A stretch of 64,000 nucleotides of DNA from Parcubacteria group bacterium (GCA_016188835.1 JACPHB010000006.1:1877-65876); one strand, 5' to 3'; positions 36,737-50,429 are shown, numbered from the stretch's first letter. Numbers and translations are program-made. Notes: generated by a model from the letters alone, not told the origin.

Positions 36737-37865
36737 ACAAAACGGTAATTTTTGGCTGGCGGTTTTTTCTCTTGTCGGCACCACTATCGGCGCCGGCATT
36801 TTTAGTTTGCCTTACGCTTTTTTTAAATCCGGCTTTCTTATTGGATTTTTAGAGTTTGTCGCTCTTGTTGCCGCGGTTTTATTGATCCAACTAATTATTG
36901 GCGAAATTGCTTTAAGAACCAAAGGGAAAAAACGCTTTATCGGATATGCCGAGCAGTATCTCGGCTACAGGTGGAAATTATTTGTAACCATTTCAACTCT
37001 TTTAGGAGGAATTGGCGTTATTTTGGTTTACATAATTTTAGCCGGCAATTTTCTTTCATTTATTATCGGTAAAAGCGCTGTCTCAAGTTCTTTAATTTTT
37101 TTTGCTGTTTGGTTTTTATTTATCTTGACTAAACCAAGAATATTCGGCAAAACCGAATTAATTTTTAGTTTTTCAATAATTTCAATTATTATATTGATTT
37201 CATCGTTTAATATCGGTTATATAAATTTTAATAATTTTAAAGATTTTAATGTCGATAATGTTCTTTTGCCTTACGGCGTTATTTTATTCGCCATTTCTGG
37301 TTATTATGTAATACCGGAAATGGAAGATATAATAGGAACTTCAAAACGAAAATTAAAAAAAGCCATAATTTTTGGCACTCTCATTCCCGCAGCTGTATAC
37401 TTGTTTTTTATTTTTATCGTTTTGGGTGTCTCTGGCAGTTTAACTTCGCCCGACGCCATTTCTGGTCTGGCCGGCGCTTCAAATTCAAAAATAACTCTTT
37501 TGCTCGGATCGTTTTTAGGGCTTTTAGCGGTTTCTGAAGCTTCGCTGAGTTATGGAATATATATCAAAGAAACGCTTTGGTACGACTTTAAAATTAACAA
37601 ATGGCTGGCATGGTTTCTAACCGGAGCGGCTCCTTTAGCGTTGTTTTTAATGGGGGCAAGAAATTTAATAATGATCATCGGTATTGTCGGCGCTTTATTT
37701 TTCGCTTTTCATGCCATTGTCGTTTTATTGATCCATAAAAAATCAAAATCGTCGGAAATTAAACCTGATTATGAGATAAAACTGCCGAATTTTGTTTATT
37801 ATTTAGTCGGGCTCGCGGCGATTTTTGGAGCTTTGCTTGAGGTTTGGTATAGTTTGTCCCTATAG
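36723..37865 (+). CDS. amino acid permease (aromatic amino acid / Trp-Tyr permease-like, about 11 TM)
   Basis: N-terminal FWLAVFSLVGTTIGAGIFSLPYAF signature; polytopic. Confidence 0.7.
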   Translation: MAENKQNGNFWLAVFSLVGTTIGAGIFSLPYAFFKSGFLIGFLEFVALVAAVLLIQLIIGEIALRTKGKKRFIGYAEQYLGYRWKLFVTISTLLGGIGVILVYIILAGNFLSFIIGKSAVSSSLIFFAVWFLFILTKPRIFGKTELIFSFSIISIIILISSFNIGYINFNNFKDFNVDNVLLPYGVILFAISGYYVIPEMEDIIGTSKRKLKKAIIFGTLIPAAVYLFFIFIVLGVSGSLTSPDAISGLAGASNSKITLLLGSFLGLLAVSEASLSYGIYIKETLWYDFKINKWLAWFLTGAAPLALFLMGARNLIMIIGIVGALFFAFHAIVVLLIHKKSKSSEIKPDYEIKLPNFVYYLVGLAAIFGALLEVWYSLSL

Positions 37866-37927
37866 CTCAACGGACAGAGCGCAACCCTCCGAAGGTTGAG
37901 ATCAAGGTTCAATTCCTTGTAGGGGCA
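37856..37927 (+). tRNA. tRNA-Arg (anticodon CCG)
   Basis: Cloverleaf folded by hand: acceptor gtcccta/taggggc (one G-U), D-arm gctc-aacggaca-gagc, anticodon arm caacc-cuCCGaa-gguug, T-arm caagg-TTCAATT-ccttg, discriminator A; CCA not encoded. Confidence 0.8.
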
Positions 37928-37949
37928 CAAATATGTTAAAATAAAATGT

Positions 37950-41814: not shown

Positions 41815-42016
41815 ATAGAATATTTTGATTAAATTTAATATGCTGAATATTAATTGGTTTCTATAAAAAAGTCAAACATTTGAGAGATTTTTGTTGTGCC
41901 CCTCGACTATCGCTCAGGGCACTCGTCTCAAAACAAAAACCAGAAACAAGTTTCTGGTTTTTGTTTTCGCTGTGGTTTACCACGAGCGAACATTGCCAAA
42001 AGCAATGTGAGTCGAG

Positions 42017-42456
42017 TGGAAGTGGCGAGAGTTGAACTCGCATCTAGAATTTAGCAATTAAACATATCTACAGGCGATAGGCTATTTATTGTTTTAGAAA
42101 TCTTTCTTAAAACAGCCAAAATAAAAGATTCCCGTTTCTTCTTTGGTTCTATCCGAATCGAAGAATTTTCGGATTAAAGCCTAATGGTTGACACCGGTAT
42201 TGTCCTATTAGACATCAGACAGCCGATGCCCTCCTACGTTAAAACTTCGGAGGGTGAAACCCGCTTAAGCAAAAGCGAAAGCAGGAGTTAGATTTGTTTT
42301 GGCAGTTATTTTCTGCTTTGCCCTCCATAGCTTTACGCGAAGGAGGGCAATCTCGGGGATTGTCGCATCCCGCTGAGCGGGACGGAATTTCGAGGTTACG
42401 AGATATCCTCGGCCTGCATATTTAATTTTAAAATTCTATCGAAGCCCATCACCCCC
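42017..42456 (-). ncRNA. ssrA: tmRNA (ssrA): tRNA-like 5' GGGGGUGAUGGGCUUCGA.., 3' GCGAGUUCAACUCUCGC-CACUUCC-A; predicted tag reading frame at 42265-42303 (AKTNLTPAFAFA*)
   Basis: Minus-strand 5' end and T-arm/acceptor 3' end match tmRNA consensus (E. coli GGGGCUGAUUCUGGAUUCGAC.. / GCGGGUUCAACUCCCGCCAGCUCCACCA); AUAACU-GCC resume context like E. coli AUAGUC-GCA; directly adjacent to smpB. Confidence 0.75.
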
Positions 42457-42957: not shown

Positions 42958-44580
42958 ATGATAGAACTAATTAAAACGCTATTAGCCGACATAACGAGAA
43001 AAATAGCTCCCAATTTCACTGGCGAAATTGTTGTTAAAATAACGGAAAATAAAAATCAAGGCGATTACACTTCAAACGTTGCTTTTGCTTTGTCAAAAAT
43101 TCTAAAAAAATCATCGCAAATAGCGGCAGAGGAATTGGTAAAAAAGCTCAAGTTTTCTACAGCGGGCAAGAAAGAATTTTCTAAAATTGAAGCTCAAAAC
43201 GGTTTTATAAACTTTTTTCTTTCAGAAAATTGTTTAAAGCATCAACTTGAGGAAATTTTAAGGTTAAAAAATAAATACGGAAATTCCAATATTGGCAAAA
43301 ATTGTAAAACTCAAATCGAGTTCATTTCCGCTAATCCAACTGGGCCTTTAACTATCGGTAATGGCCGGGGTGGATTTTACGGCGATGTTCTGGCGAATGT
43401 TTTGAAAACACAAGGGTATAAGATTACCAGAGAATTTTATATAAACGACAGGGGCGGCCAAATTTTGGCTCTTGGCAGGTCAATTAAATTGGCGCGGGGT
43501 GAGAAGTTAGATTTAGAAAAAACCGAATCAGAAAATTTATATAGGGGCGATTATATAAATGCCTTGGCGGAACAGATAGATAAAAATTTAAGCGTTGAAG
43601 AAACGGGGCAAAGAGCAGTTGATTTAATTTTAAGTACACACATAAAACCGGTTATAAAAAAATTGGGGATAAAATACAATGTTTGGTTTTCCGAGAAATC
43701 TTTATACAAGAACGGAATCTATCAAAGAGTAATGGGTGATTTAATGCAAAAAGATTTAATTTATGAAGCGGACGGAGCGACTTGGATGAAAACATCAGAA
43801 TTGGGCGACAGCGAAGACAGGGTCTTGATAAAAAGTAATGGCGACGAAACATATTTTATGTCCGACATTCTTTATCATTTGAATAAATTTGAAATAAGGA
43901 AGTTTGATAAGGTTATTGATGTTTGGGGGGCCGATCATCATGGCGATATGCTACGGTTATCTGGTGTTTTAAAGGTTTTAGGTGTTGATTTGGGACGACT
44001 TATAATATTGCTTAATCAATTTGTGCGTCTTGTTTTGGGCGGAAAAGAATTTAAGTTTTCAAAGCGCGCCGGAACTTTTATAACCCTTGAAGAATTAGTT
44101 GATGAAGTGGGGCTTGATGCCACCAGATTTTTCTTTTTGATGTACTCGATCAATACCCATATGGATTTTGATCTGGCGCTTGCAAAGGAACGATCGCAGA
44201 AAAATCCGGTTTATTACGTTCAATACGCTCATGCGAGAATCACGAGTATTCTCGTTAAAATCAAAAATCAAAAATCAAAAATCAAAATTACAAATCAAAA
44301 TTTAAAATTATTAAATACCGAACCGGAATTAAATTTAATGAGAAAATTAATAGAGTTGCCCGAAATTTTAATTGATATCTCAAAAAATTACGAAGTCCAC
44401 CGACTGCCGCGATACGCGTTGGAGTTGGCACGGGAATTCCACAATTTTTACGAAAAAGAACGGGTAATTACCGAAGATAAAAACTTAACAATAGCTCGTT
44501 TGTCATTAGTCATGGCGACAAAAATTGTTTTGGCAAATACGTTAAACTTGATGGGTATTAAATCTCCTGATAAGATGTAA
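42958..44580 (+). CDS. argS: arginyl-tRNA synthetase
   Basis: ISANPTGPLTIGNGRGG (HIGH-region analogue); C-terminal DALR anticodon-binding domain (YVQYAHAR). Confidence 0.9.
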   Translation: MIELIKTLLADITRKIAPNFTGEIVVKITENKNQGDYTSNVAFALSKILKKSSQIAAEELVKKLKFSTAGKKEFSKIEAQNGFINFFLSENCLKHQLEEILRLKNKYGNSNIGKNCKTQIEFISANPTGPLTIGNGRGGFYGDVLANVLKTQGYKITREFYINDRGGQILALGRSIKLARGEKLDLEKTESENLYRGDYINALAEQIDKNLSVEETGQRAVDLILSTHIKPVIKKLGIKYNVWFSEKSLYKNGIYQRVMGDLMQKDLIYEADGATWMKTSELGDSEDRVLIKSNGDETYFMSDILYHLNKFEIRKFDKVIDVWGADHHGDMLRLSGVLKVLGVDLGRLIILLNQFVRLVLGGKEFKFSKRAGTFITLEELVDEVGLDATRFFFLMYSINTHMDFDLALAKERSQKNPVYYVQYAHARITSILVKIKNQKSKIKITNQNLKLLNTEPELNLMRKLIELPEILIDISKNYEVHRLPRYALELAREFHNFYEKERVITEDKNLTIARLSLVMATKIVLANTLNLMGIKSPDKM

Positions 44581-44584
44581 ACCT

Positions 44585-47500
44585 ATGGAATTATTTTCTC
44601 CGAAAACTGAAGAAAAGATTTTGGATTTTTGGCAAAAAAATCAAATTTTTGAGAAATTAAGACAAAAAATCAGAGGCCAAAAACACTGGTCTTTTTTGGA
44701 TGGGCCGATTACCGCTAACAATCCCATGGGCGTTCATCACGCGTGGGGCCGGACTTATAAAGACCTATTTCAGAGATATAAAGCGATGAGAGGGTTTGAC
44801 CAGAGATTTCAAAACGGTTTTGACGCTCAAGGTCTTTGGGTGGAAGTAGAGGTGGAAAAAGAACTGGGTTTTAAATCCAAAAAAGACATTGAGAAGTATG
44901 GAATTGCCAAATTTGTTGAAAAATGCAAAGAGCGCGTAAGAAAATATTCCGAAATCCAAACGAATCAATCGATCAGATTAGGCCAATGGATGGACTGGAA
45001 AAACAGTTATTACACGATGTCTAATGAAAATAATATCGCCATCTGGCACTTTCTAAAAAAATGCCGGGAAAAAGGATTGCTTTATAAAGGACACGATGTT
45101 GTCCCCTGGTGTTGGCGTTGCGGTACGGCTATTTCCCAACATGAAATATTAACCGAAGATTACAAAGAAGTTACCCACGACTCGGTTTATATAGAATATC
45201 CCATTGTTGGAAACCGAGCTTCAAACATTTTCAATAAAAAAAATACCTATCTTTTAGTTTGGACCACAACTCCTTGGACTCTTCTCGGCAATGCGGCGAT
45301 AGCTATTGACCCAGAAAAGATTTATGCGGAAGCGACGGGGGAAATTAAAGGCAATTCGTATTATCTTATAAAAACTGCGGCGGAAAAATTAAACCTCAAA
45401 ATTATCAGAACGTTTAAGGGAAAGGAGTTAGTCGGTTTAATTTATAAATCGCCGTTTGATAATTTGCCGACTGTTAAAAAAACTTTATCAGGGTTTGTCC
45501 ATAAAGTTGTTGCTACTGATTCTCGCATTTTACCGGTTAGCGAGGAAGAAGGAACAGGGTTAGTTCATATAGCGCCCGGCCAAGGTGTTGAAGATTATCG
45601 ATTGGCCAAAAAATTAAAAATTCCTGCGGTTAATTTAATTGACGATGCGGCAGTTTACTTAAAAGACCTTGGACAATTCAGCGGCAAAAATGCGAAAGAA
45701 CATCCGGAAATAATTATCAATTATTTAAAAACTGCGGATTTTCTTTTTGACGCTCCAAAATATACCCACCGCTATCCCATCTGTTGGAGGTGTAAAACCG
45801 AGTTGGTATGGAAAATTGCCGACGAGTGGTATATATCAATGGATAAATTGAGGAAGCCATTAATGGAAATAGCCAAAAAAATAAAATGGATTCCTTCTTT
45901 TGGTTTAGGAAGAGAGATCGATTGGCTGAAAAATATGTCCGACTGGCTGATTTCAAAGAAAAGATATTGGGGGCTGGCGCTGCCTATTTTTGAGTGCCGA
46001 TGCGGGAACTTTGAAGTTGTCGGTTCACTTGCCGATTTTGACAAATATTCACTAAGAAAACCAAATCATTACATATTATTGCGCCACGGCGAAGCGGAAA
46101 ACAACCGTCTTAAAATCACCTCTTCTTATCCAGAGAAGGAAAAATACCCCTTAACAATAAAAGGTATTGGAGAAATTGAAAAACTTATTCCATGGTTTAA
46201 GAAAAAAAGAGTTGATTTGGTATTTTCTTCCGATATTTTACGGGCGCGGGAAACCGCTCAAATTATTGCCGGCGCTTTGGGGAAAACCGTAACTTATGAA
46301 AAGCGGCTTCGCGAGCATAACTTTGGCGATTACAACGGGCGTACTCATAAAGAATGGCATTCGCTTTTTGGCAGTAATAAAACGAATCAGTATGCAACTA
46401 AACCGCTGGGCGGCGAAAATCTGAAAGACGTTCAAAAAAGAATGACCAGTTTTCTCAAGGAATTGGATAAAAAATACGAAGGCAAAACAATTTTAATTGT
46501 AAGCCATGCCAATCCAATAGTGGCGGCCGCCAGCGCCTATAATGGTTACAAAAATGAAGAAACATTTGAAAAATTTAATATTGACGAAACTACCGGTTCT
46601 GTCGTTGAAATATATGGCCATAACTGGCCATATAATAATGACGGCGATTTGGATTTGCACCGGCCCTACGTTGATGAAATCAGAATCAAATGTTCTAAAT
46701 GTGGCAAAATGGTCTCTCGTGTTTTAGATGTCGGCAATCCTTGGCTAGATGCCGGAATTGTGCCTTATTCAACCATAGGATACTTTGAGGAGCACGTAAA
46801 ACTGCCTGACGGCAGTAACGTGCCAGGTAAAAAATTTTGGCGCAAGTGGTTTCCCGCCGAGCTTGTTTGTGAGTCATTTCCCGGCCAGTTTAAAAATTGG
46901 TTTTATTCTTTGATTGTAATGAGCGCGGTTTTAGAAAAAGTTCCGCCAATGAAAACGGTTTTTGGTTATGCTTCGGTTCGAGACGACAAAGGTGAAGAGA
47001 TGCACAAATCAAAGGGGAATGCCATTTGGTTTGACGAAGCGGCGGAAAAAATAGGAGTTGACGTGATGCGCTGGATGTATGTTAAACAGAATCCGGCCGA
47101 TAATTTAAAATTCGGATATGCGCCGGCTAAAGAGCACGAAAGAAAACTAATGAATCTTTGGAACAGTTTCACTTTTTTTAAAACTTATGCTTCGCATAAA
47201 CCAAGCTCCAAGCTCTCCTTCGACAAGCTCAGGATCCCGAGCGGCGTCGAGGGACAAGCTCCAAGCTCTTTATTAGACCAGTGGATTTTGTCGCGTCTTA
47301 ATAATCTTATAGAAAAAGTCACCAAAGATTTGGATAAATATGATTCTGCTTCTGCCAGTAGAGCGATTGAAGAGTTTTTTATAGAAGATCTTTCTTTGTG
47401 GCATATCCGCCGTTCGCGGGTAAGGTTTCAAATGCCGAAATCAGAAAAAGAAAAACAAGAAGCTGTCGAAATGCTTTATCTGGTATTATTTAGTTTATCA

Positions 47501-48163
47501 AAACTTATTGCTCCATTTCTGCCGTTTTTATCTGAGGAAATTTACTTATACTTAACCCGCTTCGCTAAAGCTCCAGCGAGGCGAGAAGACAAAACAATGC
47601 CGGATTCGGTGCATCTCTGCGACTGGCCGAAATCCGACAAAAAATTTATCAATCAGAAATTGGAAGAACAAATGGATTTAGTTAGGGAGATGGCCGCCAA
47701 AGGGTTGGCGCTTCGAGCGGAGGCGGGAATTAAAGTGAGGCAACCGCTCGCTTCGCTCCAATTTCCAATTTCTAATTTTAAATTTTCAAAAAATAAAGAA
47801 CTTTTGGAGTTGATTAAAGACGAGGTAAACGTGAAAAAAATTATTTTTGGCAATAAGTTTAAATTGGACGCAAAAATCACACCAGAATTAAAAGAAGAGG
47901 GAATTATAAGGGATTTGGCGCGGCAAATTCAGGAAATGAGGCGTGACGGGGGATTGGTGCCGAAAGATTTTATAAAAATTTATTTTAAAATTAACGATGT
48001 CGAATTGGAAAACACTGTTAAAAAACGGCAAAAAAATCTCATGATTAACGTAGGCGCAAAAACCATTGAACTTATTGACGTCGCAAAAGAAGGTCTTTTA
48101 ATCGACCGGCACTTTGAACGCGGCGGGGAAGATGTGTGGATAGGATTTGAAAAAATAAAATGA
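44585..48163 (+). CDS. ileS: isoleucyl-tRNA synthetase (type 2) with an inserted histidine-phosphatase (PGAM-like) domain of about 200 aa between the Zn-ribbon and the LHRPYVD motif
   Basis: HIGH-type P..HHAWG, CP1 editing TTTPWTL, KMSKS as EMHKSKGN; the insert about 46050-46650 has the RHG catalytic motif LLRHGEAENN and SHANPIV (histidine phosphatase branch 1). Confidence 0.9.
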   Translation: MELFSPKTEEKILDFWQKNQIFEKLRQKIRGQKHWSFLDGPITANNPMGVHHAWGRTYKDLFQRYKAMRGFDQRFQNGFDAQGLWVEVEVEKELGFKSKKDIEKYGIAKFVEKCKERVRKYSEIQTNQSIRLGQWMDWKNSYYTMSNENNIAIWHFLKKCREKGLLYKGHDVVPWCWRCGTAISQHEILTEDYKEVTHDSVYIEYPIVGNRASNIFNKKNTYLLVWTTTPWTLLGNAAIAIDPEKIYAEATGEIKGNSYYLIKTAAEKLNLKIIRTFKGKELVGLIYKSPFDNLPTVKKTLSGFVHKVVATDSRILPVSEEEGTGLVHIAPGQGVEDYRLAKKLKIPAVNLIDDAAVYLKDLGQFSGKNAKEHPEIIINYLKTADFLFDAPKYTHRYPICWRCKTELVWKIADEWYISMDKLRKPLMEIAKKIKWIPSFGLGREIDWLKNMSDWLISKKRYWGLALPIFECRCGNFEVVGSLADFDKYSLRKPNHYILLRHGEAENNRLKITSSYPEKEKYPLTIKGIGEIEKLIPWFKKKRVDLVFSSDILRARETAQIIAGALGKTVTYEKRLREHNFGDYNGRTHKEWHSLFGSNKTNQYATKPLGGENLKDVQKRMTSFLKELDKKYEGKTILIVSHANPIVAAASAYNGYKNEETFEKFNIDETTGSVVEIYGHNWPYNNDGDLDLHRPYVDEIRIKCSKCGKMVSRVLDVGNPWLDAGIVPYSTIGYFEEHVKLPDGSNVPGKKFWRKWFPAELVCESFPGQFKNWFYSLIVMSAVLEKVPPMKTVFGYASVRDDKGEEMHKSKGNAIWFDEAAEKIGVDVMRWMYVKQNPADNLKFGYAPAKEHERKLMNLWNSFTFFKTYASHKPSSKLSFDKLRIPSGVEGQAPSSLLDQWILSRLNNLIEKVTKDLDKYDSASASRAIEEFFIEDLSLWHIRRSRVRFQMPKSEKEKQEAVEMLYLVLFSLSKLIAPFLPFLSEEIYLYLTRFAKAPARREDKTMPDSVHLCDWPKSDKKFINQKLEEQMDLVREMAAKGLALRAEAGIKVRQPLASLQFPISNFKFSKNKELLELIKDEVNVKKIIFGNKFKLDAKITPELKEEGIIRDLARQIQEMRRDGGLVPKDFIKIYFKINDVELENTVKKRQKNLMINVGAKTIELIDVAKEGLLIDRHFERGGEDVWIGFEKIK

Positions 48164-48642
48164 ATTATTATCAAACTAAAGCCATAGTTTTGAAAAGAGA
48201 AGACATTTTTGAGGCCGATCGCATTTACAATTTATATACTGAAGAATTTGGAAAAGTTAGGGCGATTGCCGGCAGTGTTCGTAAAATCAATGCCAAACTT
48301 TCCGGACACTTAGAACCGTTTAATATTATTTGGGTTGAACTGGCGACCAAAAAAAACGGCGATTTATTTATTACCACCGCTTTGTCTTTTAAAAAACTTT
48401 TAAGTCATAATATTTTGCCTGCTCAAACCGCTCTTTTTGCCAAAATGGCAGATTTTTCCTGTTTAATGCTAAAAGGTCCGCAAAAAGACGAAATGTTATG
48501 GAGTTATATTTTAGAAAGTTTTGTAAAAGCCAGTATAGTTGGAACGGACACTGATAAATTTTTAGGCGCTTATAAAACCGGCTTCATTAAAATAATGGGA
48601 TTTGGGGATAATTTAGAAGAGGCCTTATGGTATAATTATTGA
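48160..48642 (+). CDS. recO: DNA repair protein RecO (short form, OB-fold N-domain plus helical domain, no zinc finger)
   Basis: KAIVLKREDIFEADRIYNLYTEEFGKVRAIAGSVRKINAKLSGHLEPFN matches the RecO N-terminal domain. Confidence 0.6.
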   Translation: MNYYQTKAIVLKREDIFEADRIYNLYTEEFGKVRAIAGSVRKINAKLSGHLEPFNIIWVELATKKNGDLFITTALSFKKLLSHNILPAQTALFAKMADFSCLMLKGPQKDEMLWSYILESFVKASIVGTDTDKFLGAYKTGFIKIMGFGDNLEEALWYNY

Positions 48643-50429
48643 CAATGATTCAAATTCCAACACCTACGACGTCGCCGAAATTTTCCGGCCCGTCGTTGCC
48701 TCAAGCAGTTCGTTTTTTTAGTCCCCGGCAAAAAAAAATCCTGATTATCGCCAGTATCATTTTTCTTATAGTTGTTATTTTAAGTGGCATCGGTTTTTAT
48801 TTTTGGCTGACCTCGTTTAAAAAATCACGGGTTGATTTTAATATTTCTGGACCGACTCAAGCAGCCAGCGGAGAGCAAATTACCTATCAAATTTCTTATT
48901 GGAATAACACCAATCAAATTCTTCAAAACGCCAATTTAACAGTTCGTTATCCGCAAGAAGCGGTGGTTGCCGGTGGCAAGATTATTCAAAATGTTGATTT
49001 GGGCAATATCGGTATTGGCGGTGGCGGTAAAATCGAAGTTAATTTGGCTTTTGTTGGTTCGGATAAAAGTATCCAGAAACTTCAAGCAGTTTTAAGTTAT
49101 AAACCGCAAAATACCGTCTCAACTTTTGAAAATGAGGCCGTTAAAGAAGTGGCTATAAATGGTTCGGCGTTGACCGTTGATTTTAAAGCGCCGGAAACTG
49201 TTTTGCCGAACATTAGAAATGTTTATATAATCCATTATAAAAACAATACTGAAGAAGTTTTAAAGAACGTTTCAATTGAAGCAAGCTATCCGCAAGATTT
49301 CAATTTTGTGTCTTCGGATCGTGTGCCGGCAAAAAGCAATAATGTTTGGAATTTAGGCGATTTAAATCCCAATGAAGAAGGTAATATCACTGTTTTGGGA
49401 ATTTTAAGAAATACCGAAAGCGCTAACTTCGAATTGGCCATCGGCATTCGGGAAAGTGATAAATTTTTTAAGTTTAGTCGCAGTTCGGCTCAAATCAATT
49501 TAACTGCTTCGCCCATTGCTGTAGACATATCGGTAAATAATCAGTCAAGCATCACTATTAATCCGGGCGATTTTCTGCAATTTAAAATCAGCTACAAAAA
49601 TAATACCAGTATTACCTTGTCCGATATTGTTTTAAAGGCCAAGCTCGACGGTTTAATGTATGATTTTTCTTCCCTTAAGACCAAGGGTTTTTACAATGGT
49701 TCGGATAATGCCATTACTTGGAATGCCGGAAATACGGCAGAATTTAAGAATTTAGAACCAGCCGCTACGGGTGAGGTGGAATTTCAAATCACTGTTAAAC
49801 CGCAATATATTATTAGAACTTTCAGGGACAAGAATTTTTTGCTTCAGGTTTTAGCGACAATGGAAACGCCGACCGTACCGCCATCTTTAGCGGTTAAGTT
49901 GCTTTCGGTTTCAAGCGATTTAGCTTTGAAAGTTAATACTAAAGCGGAACTTAAAACCAAAGGTTATTATTATGATACGGTTATTAAAAATTCCGGGCCT
50001 TTACCGCCGAAGGTGAGTAAAACCACCACTTACACTATTCATTGGCAGGTTGCCAATTATTCTAATGATCTTGATAAAGTTATTGTCAAAACAGTTTTAC
50101 CGGAAGGCGTCAGTTGGCAGAGTAAAAAAGCCGGCGCCGGCGCCGCCACCTTAGAATACAACGATCGAACTAGCGAACTTACCTGGAACATCGGTAAATT
50201 GCCGGCTGGAACCGGACTACTGCTTGATCCGTATGAAGTGATTTTTCAAGTGGCTTTAACGCCTTCAATAAAAAATGTAAACACTATTATGCCGGTTATA
50301 AGCGATTCAAATTTAACCGCCGAGGACATTTTTACCGGTATCGGTGTCACAGCATCAGCGCCGGCGCTAAAAACCGATATGCCGGACGACCTCGGTGTCG
50401 GTTTTACTAAAAGCCGCATCCAACCTTGA
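48639..50429 (+). CDS. large membrane-anchored surface protein with repeated beta-rich (DUF11-like) domains, hypothetical
   Basis: N-terminal TM; N/T/S-rich repetitive beta pattern. Confidence 0.45.
   Translation: MTMIQIPTPTTSPKFSGPSLPQAVRFFSPRQKKILIIASIIFLIVVILSGIGFYFWLTSFKKSRVDFNISGPTQAASGEQITYQISYWNNTNQILQNANLTVRYPQEAVVAGGKIIQNVDLGNIGIGGGGKIEVNLAFVGSDKSIQKLQAVLSYKPQNTVSTFENEAVKEVAINGSALTVDFKAPETVLPNIRNVYIIHYKNNTEEVLKNVSIEASYPQDFNFVSSDRVPAKSNNVWNLGDLNPNEEGNITVLGILRNTESANFELAIGIRESDKFFKFSRSSAQINLTASPIAVDISVNNQSSITINPGDFLQFKISYKNNTSITLSDIVLKAKLDGLMYDFSSLKTKGFYNGSDNAITWNAGNTAEFKNLEPAATGEVEFQITVKPQYIIRTFRDKNFLLQVLATMETPTVPPSLAVKLLSVSSDLALKVNTKAELKTKGYYYDTVIKNSGPLPPKVSKTTTYTIHWQVANYSNDLDKVIVKTVLPEGVSWQSKKAGAGAATLEYNDRTSELTWNIGKLPAGTGLLLDPYEVIFQVALTPSIKNVNTIMPVISDSNLTAEDIFTGIGVTASAPALKTDMPDDLGVGFTKSRIQP

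Follow-up and report, generated by a model that had tools for sequence, protein, structure and literature searches.

Why should an essential aminoacyl-tRNA synthetase carry a phosphatase in the middle of its chain? The question is raised by the ileS gene of a Parcubacteria group bacterium (GCA_016188835.1 JACPHB010000006.1:1877-65876), an ultra-small organism of the candidate phyla radiation (Patescibacteria); the gene was analysed within a window of 64,000 nucleotides (nt), the term window denoting here the whole stretch of DNA under study. A first-pass annotation made from the sequence alone had placed a histidine phosphatase domain at 46050-46650 inside this isoleucyl-tRNA synthetase (IleRS), and these coordinates were right, the extra segment being measured at nt 46037-46654. 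We propose, with a probability of about 0.72, that the insert is an active phosphomonoesterase of the small-molecule type that is physically dedicated to IleRS. It would be the covalent form of a two-gene module, argS-phosphatase (189 amino acids, aa)-ileS, widespread in Patescibacteria; in many lineages the phosphatase would have moved from the slot upstream of ileS into the CP3 subdomain of the synthetase, more than once, and the nested cassette would be exchangeable. The gene and its parts are the following.

44585-48163, + strand: ileS, a complete IleRS with nested phosphatase (uninterrupted open reading frame (ORF) of 1192 aa; TIGR00392, Pfam)
44585-46036, + strand: N-terminal part of IleRS, aa 1-484, with the first Rossmann half, CP core, CP1 editing domain, CP2, CP2-3 linker and first half of CP3; aligns with residues 11-476 of 1ILE
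46037-46654, + strand: the extra segment (insert), aa 485-690, 206 aa
46658-48163, + strand: C-terminal part of IleRS, aa 692-1192, with the remaining CP3, the second Rossmann half including the KMSKS-equivalent loop, and the anticodon-binding and C-terminal domains (Anticodon_1, DUF5915); aligns with residues 488-821 of 1ILE

The insert matches PF00300 (His_Phos_1) with an E-value of 1.3e-39 and 136.3 bits against a cutoff of 21.7, covering profile positions 2-186 of 194. This domain search bears out the earlier assignment to branch 1 of the histidine phosphatases with an intact catalytic set, and the motifs quoted at that time (LLRHGEAENN with R500 and H501, SSDILRARETAQII with R553, and ILIVSHANPIV with H641) are all present. 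Conservation of the catalytic residues was counted over ~199 fused or long sequences and 65 standalone proteins.

46073-46627, + strand: histidine phosphatase (branch 1) domain, aa 497-681 (PF00300)
46082-46087, + strand: R500-H501 of the RHG motif, with H501 as predicted phospho-acceptor; each residue in 194 of 194 ungapped fused or long sequences
46241-46243, + strand: R553, predicted to bind phosphate, in LRARETA; 197 of 199 fused and 65 of 65 standalone sequences
46313-46315, + strand: E577, predicted general acid, in LREHNFG; Glu in 173 and Asp in 26 of 199
46415-46441, + strand: conserved GGE...R element from E611 to R619; each of the two residues in 198 of 199
46505-46507, + strand: H641, second catalytic His, in VSHANP; 199 of 199 fused or long sequences

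The catalytic core of the superfamily, consisting of the RHG His, two Arg, the second His and an acidic donor, is present in full. We take the distance from R553 to E577 (+24) to be that from R59 to E83 in PhoE, and LREHNFG to be the match of LNERHYG in cofactor-dependent phosphoglycerate mutase (dPGM). Following RHGE..N, free and nested forms have a subfamily signature in common, S-S/C-W/Y-P-E. In the full-length AlphaFold2 (AF2) model, the block means of the predicted local distance difference test (pLDDT) over the insert mostly lie between 86 and 97 (one block 72, two 81), and the insert modelled alone has a mean pLDDT of 87.4. Foldseek against the PDB gave a probability of 1.00 and template modelling (TM) scores of 0.72-0.78, the best of ~0.77 being to 4IJ6, 6S2Q, 4QIH and 1EBB. 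These neighbours, with which the insert shares the alpha/beta fold of the superfamily, are small phosphomonoesterases, namely the H. thermophilus phosphoserine phosphatase 4IJ6, the mycobacterial hydrolase 6S2Q, GpgP Rv2419c, PhoE/YhfR and CobC, whereas mutases had lower target-normalised TM scores of 0.56-0.66. With PhoE/YhfR (B. stearothermophilus 1EBB, 1H2E), the phosphoserine phosphatase iPSP (H. thermophilus 4IJ5/4IJ6), GpgP (M. tuberculosis Rv2419c, 4PZ9) and CobC (6E4B) the insert shares the fold, the catalytic set (R-H-G, second Arg, Glu and second His), the length of ~190 aa and the usual cap, but it is only 22-26% identical to them and has its own signature. It is no dPGM equivalog, scoring 101 bits against a cutoff of 225 with the archaeal dPGM model NF038349 and 33-46 bits against cutoffs of 82-316 with three further dPGM models (including NF002339, 46 against 316, and TIGR01258, 33 against 82). 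Nor is it an equivalog of CobC (TIGR03162, 91 against 163) or PspA (NF045917, 63 against 350), and it stays below every metabolic family cutoff in NCBIfam. The description "PGAM-like" was therefore apt at the level of the superfamily, which insert and dPGM have in common together with the chemistry of the catalytic His, but not beyond, given that all mutase cutoffs are missed and the fold is nearer to the small phosphomonoesterases. The insert is under purifying selection: between the window protein and its relative P0004, dN/dS is 0.12 in the insert, 0.04 in the N-terminal half of IleRS and 0.13 in the C-terminal half. Judged from profiles and structural models, it is well supported that the 206-aa segment is a folded and catalytically intact branch-1 histidine phosphatase of the small PhoE/phosphoserine-phosphatase/GpgP-like type.

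The second part of the question concerns the site. The alignment A1 with insert-free relatives confirmed that the phosphatase interrupts a type-2-like IleRS in frame, after the zinc-knuckle element and before (L)HRPxVD.

45995-46003, + strand: first Cys pair of the CP3 zinc knuckle, C471-R-C473; invariant in A1, matching the CQACG pair just before residue 476 in T. thermophilus
46028-46072, + strand: N-terminal linker, aa 482-496, LADFDKYSLRKPNHY, in place of KEELKKKAI of insert-free relatives
46628-46657, + strand: C-terminal linker, aa 682-691, PYNNDGDLDL, running into the native HRPYVD
46691-46702, + strand: second Cys pair of the CP3 zinc knuckle, C703-S-K-C706; invariant in A1, matching the ACACGG pair shortly after residue 488 in T. 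thermophilus

The spacing from EVIGS to HRP is 20 residues in the insert-free P0023 and 210 here in A1, so that ~190 residues replace a 20-residue linker between C-x-C-G-N-F-E-V-(I/V)-G-S and H-R-P-(Y/W)-(V/I)-D-...-K-C-x-x-C; in P0023 the counterpart of aa 482-691 reads KEELKKKAIEGWEKFEGHTP. Residue 485 aligns with residue 476 of the T. thermophilus IleRS (1ILE) and residue 689 with residue 488, which puts the insert into subdomain CP3, in the loop that connects the Cys pairs of its zinc knuckle. The domain names follow the T. thermophilus enzyme, whose CP3 has a zinc motif (PMC7191050). Two details of the earlier description need correction: it had given the upstream Cys pair of the zinc ribbon as C-x2-C, a spacing that holds for the downstream pair (C703 and C706) but not for the upstream one, which is C-x-C (C471 and C473), and it had located the insertion in the editing/CP region, which is right for CP, namely the zinc-motif loop of CP3 (T. 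thermophilus 476-488), but not for the editing domain, which is CP1. A motif akin to the C-terminal linker, LP.N..GE.DLHRP, recurs in fused IleRS of distant lineages. About 20 residues N-terminal of the insert, MSDWLISKKRYWG (aa 451-463) is the counterpart of the yeast CP2-3 linker, which lines the pocket for tRNA-CCA and reveromycin (PMC7955072).

The host enzyme is probably otherwise complete and functional, as far as can be read from its sequence. In the NCBIfam profile search the ORF reached 648.4 bits with TIGR00392 (isoleucine--tRNA ligase) against a cutoff of 621.4, the insert notwithstanding, and scored much lower with the valS and leuS models. Pfam returned tRNA-synt_1 in two stretches on either side of His_Phos_1, and Anticodon_1 and DUF5915 in addition; among solved structures, those of T. 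thermophilus IleRS (1ILE) and P. megaterium IleRS2 (8C8U-W) are nearest. The editing motifs of CP1 are kept as invariant columns of A1, namely WTTTPWT (W226-T232), GTG.VH.AP (G323-G325 and H328) and E336-D337. Both class I signatures deviate from the canonical form.

44729-44740, + strand: HIGH position reading GVHH instead of the canonical HXGH, aa 49-52; positions 1 and 3 are exchanged
46997-47011, + strand: KMSKS loop as EMHKS, aa 805-809, with the first Lys replaced by Glu and Ser by His

The EMHKS variant is common to 107 of the 140 insert-free relatives in the set. Of the IleRS sequences compared, 85 of the 123 fused and 114 of the 140 insert-free ones have GxHH; its presence in both indicates that the HIGH variant is independent of the insert. 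According to PMC10485003, the GVHH-type variant is functional in IleRS2 and confers hyper-resistance to mupirocin.

Could the arrangement be an artefact of assembly, an insertion of intein-like or mobile nature, or a dead pseudodomain in decay? Its patchy occurrence among close relatives would fit this, as would a cassette swap in the relative P0022 (see below), which demonstrates that the segment is movable. However, identical junctions recur across hundreds of independent assemblies. An exact copy of the window protein (P0001) is found in a Parcubacteria metagenome-assembled genome (MAG) at NCBI, and 21 further clusters with 70-84% identity have the same architecture (NCBI, ENA, JGI and Logan, Candidatus Azambacteria included); six contigs encode an identical P0004 protein, in the gene order infC-smpB-argS-ileS-recO of the window. 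A joining of separate genes by misassembly, named in the first-pass annotation as a possible error, is ruled out by the same junctions in these 22 related clusters, in all 80 genome loci examined and on the six P0004 contigs, and the E-value together with the recurrence of the arrangement in many independent assemblies excludes chance. The frame is continuous without stops and free of an intein, as had been noted: the Pfam search of the single 1192-aa ORF detected no Hint or other intein family, the junctions (...GSLADF... and ...DLDLHRP...) lack signs of splicing such as a Cys, Ser or Thr at +1 after His-Asn, and the only direct or inverted repeats flanking the insert are 10-12-mers at chance level. 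Neither GC content nor skew shifts over the inserted segment, whose GC content at third codon positions (GC3) equals that of the flanks. The missing Hint domain, the lack of flanking repeats and the constant composition rule out an intein or mobile element, and with the absence of stops, the dN/dS of 0.12 and the invariant catalytic residues they leave an artefact or dead insert with practically no probability. Inteins do offer a parallel in their in-frame nesting in an essential gene, patchy occurrence, use of one site in divergent hosts and lateral exchange. They differ in possessing a Hint domain, splice-junction Cys, Ser or Thr and a homing endonuclease, whereas the insert is a conserved enzyme under purifying selection that is presumably retained in the mature protein.

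The nested form is by no means confined to close relatives of the window. An exhaustive search with the 210-aa insert over 1.84 billion representative proteins was carried out and the best 150 matches were classed; they comprise ~30 full-length IleRS of 1096-1419 aa, 30-41% identical to the window IleRS and with the phosphatase at the same site, many fragments of fused IleRS, and 56 free proteins of 150-250 aa. A word-index protein search with the insert alone returned nine proteins and missed the fusions. A single peptide pattern, run against one genome for each GTDB species, yielded 559 stretches encoding relatives, of which the best 80 were examined. All 80 have the phosphatase between the N- and C-terminal parts of ileS, in a single ORF save for L023, L032 and L083; a look at orthologous ileS genes in related genomes of the candidate phyla radiation had been suggested in the first-pass annotation. 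In these three loci the fused ileS appears as two overlapping ORFs with apparent frameshifts, which could be assembly errors or pseudogenes. The records of the fused form name Terry-, Jorgensen-, Uhr-, Nealson-, Wolfe-, Lipton-, Harrison-, Colwell- and Azambacteria, Paceibacterota, Minisyncoccota and many MAGs labelled Saccharibacteria, and two of the records are complete genomes. Eight loci (L013, L016, L022, L040, L048, L067, L074 and L083) are labelled Binatia, Acutalibacteraceae, Gammaproteobacteria, Elusimicrobia, Caldimicrobium or Pacearchaeota; these labels probably reflect mis-binned MAG contigs and not a true spread beyond the phylum.

Variants of the fusion were also met. The CP3 site holds two phosphatase domains in tandem in P0163, P0170, P0153 and P0277 (in P0163, of 1419 aa, at ~493-666 and 870-1040). 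A partial IleRS, P0197 (1066 aa), has a segment resembling the REP-associated tyrosine transposase at aa 326-472, the phosphatase at aa 680-854 and then a GNAT domain at aa 921-1065. P0131 (1161 aa, partial, one cluster on short contigs) is ValRS-like with three or four tandem histidine phosphatase domains, inserted just before the DWCISRQ.WWG CP2-3 linker and hence at a site other than that of IleRS. P0148 is an ArgRS with a C-terminal copy of the phosphatase, which is best explained by read-through of adjacent genes and was rejected as a functional link.

Where might such a domain come from? Its nearest free relatives, ~189 aa long and 40-50% identical to the insert, are encoded between argS and ileS, the former being also the upstream neighbour in the window.

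42958-44580, + strand: argS, 540 aa, 4 nt 5' of ileS (ORF; conserved operon partner)

A metagenome scan seeded with the free proteins, again with a single peptide pattern, returned the best 80 loci, of which 74 have a free phosphatase gene and the remaining six are fused. Among the 74, an insert-free ileS follows downstream on the same strand in ~66 and argS precedes in at least 63; a homologous argS is likewise found upstream on the same strand in ~45 of the 80 fused loci and also in L001-L004 and L086. Median distances, which depend on estimated start codons, are 4 nt from the argS stop to the phosphatase start and 5 nt from the phosphatase stop to the ileS start, with an overlap in 18 of 66 of the latter pairs, and this tight packing suggests translational coupling. 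No free copy was found within 6 kb of any fused ileS in the 80 fused loci, and no insert in ileS at any of the 74 loci with the free gene. Given that the two forms never occur together in the loci examined, they appear to supply the same function by two routes. The free gene also accompanies IleRS of the window's own type (62-79% identity in the N-terminal part), and in the loci seen the phosphatase is never a lone metabolic gene, being either wedged between argS and ileS or nested in ileS.

Other genes share this neighbourhood. In L015:4065-4553, L030:4077-4565, L035:4083-4565 and L073:4071-4496 a canonical family-I pyrophosphatase gene (ppa) overlaps the start of the fused ileS, filling in that clade the upstream slot held elsewhere by the free phosphatase; these genes were found by tblastn with E. 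coli Ppa. In L168:3116-7179, a gene for a fusion of TsaC (Sua5/YrdC) and the phosphatase overlaps the stop of an insert-free ileS, and in L168 and L169:1964-3292 this fusion stands near tgt and the gene of a CCA-adding enzyme with an HD domain. Patescibacteria TsaC/YrdC proteins (P0290-P0404) are very often fused to the MGMT-type DNA-binding domain PF01035 and sometimes to TruB or the methylpurine-DNA glycosylase domain PF02245. The TsaC-phosphatase fusion was considered as a Rosetta stone for a link to N6-threonylcarbamoyladenosine (t6A) or adenylates and set aside as a weak signal, as only five clusters were found and TsaC is fused to many unrelated domains.

To trace the history of the insertion, a neighbour-joining tree was computed from the IleRS core without the insert columns (263 sequences, 885 columns); on this tree Fitch parsimony counts at least eight changes between the fused and unfused state. 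The window clade, P0001-P0022, is monophyletic (bootstrap 81) and sister to five insert-free Azambacteria enzymes (bootstrap 100). In 99 of 100 replicates it joins IleRS with an upstream free gene to the exclusion of all other fused IleRS, which indicates that the window lineage gained its insert separately from the other fused lineages. The window insert is 45-50% identical to free proteins and up to 46% to other inserts. Within the clade, P0022 (L167:1623-5171) has flanks 80-100% identical to those of the window gene (44585-48163) and an insert only 20-40% identical, which is closest (53%) to that of the distant fused IleRS P0218; the linkers are those of its own clade, with the clade-specific DFDK of the N-terminal linker kept despite the swapped domain. 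This mosaic of own flanks and linkers with a foreign-like insert implies that the phosphatase cassette was replaced by recombination. Directly upstream of ileS in this locus (L167:219-1614) are genes for an RVT_1 reverse transcriptase and a bAvd accessory protein, and the same pair is found ~4 kb downstream of ileS in L004:11882-12795, where a 594-aa CLIPPER/DUF7927-like protein, with a homologue in the window at 48639-50429, is encoded in between. The pairing of reverse transcriptase and bAvd is typical of diversity-generating retroelements.

These observations may be connected by assuming that the free phosphatase docks on IleRS near CP3, the subdomain that also serves human IARS1 for holding a partner; such docking would explain why independent fusions always landed in this loop. 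A competing explanation holds that an ordinary metabolic phosphatase or mutase (acting on phosphoserine, sugar phosphates or phosphoglycerate) hitch-hiked from the argS-ileS operon into a permissive loop and has no link to aminoacylation. The highest NCBIfam matches are metabolic (dPGM_arch, CobC and PspA, with the scores given above), as are the structural neighbours; Patescibacteria readily fuse neighbouring genes, as seen for TsaC with MGMT-type, TruB and glycosylase domains; the ArgRS-phosphatase fusion P0148 resembles simple read-through; and some relatives lack the module near ileS. However, each of those family scores is far below its cutoff, and on mechanistic grounds an upstream gene cannot easily be moved in frame to a loop inside an essential enzyme; nevertheless the same loop was hit in separate IleRS lineages, where the domain is kept by purifying selection, duplicated in tandem and replaced instead of lost. 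Moreover, the phosphatase still abuts ileS when fused to TsaC. A cofactor-independent phosphoglycerate mutase (iPGM) gene adjoins the fused ileS in L005 and lies near it in L084, so that a mutase role of the insert in glycolysis is unnecessary there; together with the scores below cutoff, this disfavours a glycolytic dPGM. We regard a metabolic enzyme carried along in this way as unlikely. The suggestion of the first-pass annotation that the protein may be a pure moonlighting fusion leaves the argS-phosphatase-ileS operon, the repeated insertion at the same site and the cassette swap unexplained.

If the phosphatase is dedicated to IleRS, as we propose, it might strip a terminal phosphate from a small ligand handled there. 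Our leading guess for the substrate, possible though tentative, is an adenosine-type phosphomonoester (free AMP, 2'/3'-AMP, or the phosphorylated A76 of tRNA-Ile), whose removal would keep charging from being blocked or reversed. The capped PhoE/PSP-like fold of the model favours a small phosphomonoester. Enzymes of the histidine phosphatase superfamily attack terminal phosphomonoesters via a phospho-histidine; Ap4A, once suggested as the kind of by-product hydrolysed by the domain, has no such group and is therefore an unlikely substrate. In a more far-reaching version, a dedicated dephosphorylation step would belong to tRNA-Ile charging across much of Patescibacteria, in which a third active site clears phosphate from the 3'-terminal A of tRNA-Ile or from an enzyme-bound adenosine nucleotide, for instance when these have been damaged or modified in conflicts between bacteria or with phages, and this coupling would drive the repeated insertion into CP3; we consider this version rather doubtful.

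Two other activities were weighed at this point. The domain could hydrolyse the pyrophosphate (PPi) released during amino-acid activation and thereby pull the reaction forward in an editing synthetase with high futile ATP turnover. All partners seen (IleRS, ValRS, ArgRS and TsaC) release PPi from ATP, the position of fusion differs between partners, as expected for a diffusible substrate, and the ppa genes overlapping the ileS start in four loci are compatible with an importance of PPi removal near IleRS. On the other hand, these four loci hold a canonical pyrophosphatase and the insert side by side, which would make the insert redundant and weakens a role as general pyrophosphatase; we know of no histidine phosphatase that acts as a pyrophosphatase, and the ArgRS and TsaC fusions are rare and accounted for by adjacency, so that local clearing of PPi appears improbable. 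The domain could also be a protein phosphatase, in the manner of SixA, Sts-1 or PGAM5, that guards IleRS or a partner by reversing inhibitory phosphorylation by a HipA-like toxin kinase. HipA-type kinases inactivate the class I synthetases GltX and TrpS, some members of the superfamily dephosphorylate proteins, and a tethered enzyme could act in cis from any attachment point. However, the cap is the standard one of small-molecule enzymes, which are structurally nearest and not SixA, no kinase gene was seen in the conserved neighbourhood of the examined loci, and IleRS is not known to be phosphorylated; this role is very improbable.

Several points speak against a phosphatase dedicated to IleRS. 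The close relatives P0023-P0027 and the locus L004 have neither an insert nor a free copy within 5 kb, argS and ileS being 5 nt apart in L004 with no phosphatase between them, which argues that IleRS does not strictly need the phosphatase. Patescibacteria genomes are rich in translation genes and in fusions driven by adjacency, such as those of TsaC, so that evidence from gene neighbourhood is weaker than in other phyla. The tree of the phosphatase domain (181 columns) does not resolve the source of the insert, its sister group being mixed in 99 of 100 bootstraps, and all trees are of the neighbour-joining type. With regard to the substrate, the usual small-molecule-phosphatase cap argues against a tRNA end, to our knowledge no member of the superfamily acts on RNA ends or pyrophosphate, and ppa overlapping the fused ileS in four loci indicates that the insert is not a general pyrophosphatase there.

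With respect to known systems, the window host resembles the type 2 IleRS with the G/AXHH motif described in PMC10485003 by its GVHH and the type-2 C-terminal domain DUF5915; the described IleRS2 enzymes are without a catalytic domain in CP3, and none is mentioned in the passages of that article consulted. A term search of a 2026 preprint on the evolution of IleRS domains met none of the words phosphatase, CP3 and Patescibacteria, and full-text literature searches found no paper on an IleRS-phosphatase fusion or its CP3 site. The earlier remark that no report of the arrangement was known stands as far as papers on the fusion are concerned, but the architecture is common in public Patescibacteria genomes under generic labels, the records naming the proteins only "class I tRNA ligase family protein" or "isoleucyl-tRNA synthetase". 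That IleRS can house a second enzymatic domain is already known from NF040702 (IleRS with N-acetyltransferase domain), which differs in carrying GNAT instead of a phosphatase and in having its ~200 extra positions, judged by profile coordinates (281-497), in the CP1 region and not in CP3; the window protein scores 282 bits with this model against a cutoff of 1999, and Pfam finds no acetyltransferase domain in it. In human IARS1, CP3 and the catalytic domain dock the UNE-L domain of LARS1 (PMC13439101). CP3 of IARS1 is comparable to that of the window protein as an exposed, lineage-variable surface that holds a partner, but the human partner is non-covalent, non-catalytic, part of the vertebrate multi-synthetase complex and evolutionarily unrelated.

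Aminoacyl-tRNA synthetases rank with the most thoroughly studied enzymes, and the domains known to have been added to them in bacteria serve editing, tRNA binding or resistance. A conserved and apparently active phosphatase coupled to IleRS by operon or nested in it across hundreds of Patescibacteria species would imply a phosphate-removing step tied to the charging of isoleucine that lies outside current models. Should a tRNA end or a toxic nucleotide turn out to be the substrate, translation would be linked to conflict or repair biology in episymbiotic bacteria. The system also offers a clean natural experiment in protein evolution, in which the phosphatase exists as a separate subunit and as a nested domain, has entered one loop repeatedly and convergently, and is exchanged as a cassette. 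The CP3 loop may serve as a ready permissive site for engineering IleRS, and the alternative of free gene or insert as a simple marker for the history of IleRS in a phylum that is hard to culture.

Among the further features of the window, a gene with a RecO_N domain overlaps the 3' end of ileS, and two RNA genes lie on the 5' side of argS.

42014-42456, - strand: tmRNA gene with the tag peptide AKTNLTPAFAFA, upstream of argS
37856-37928, + strand: tRNA-Arg(CCG), the sole tRNA gene in the 64-kb window

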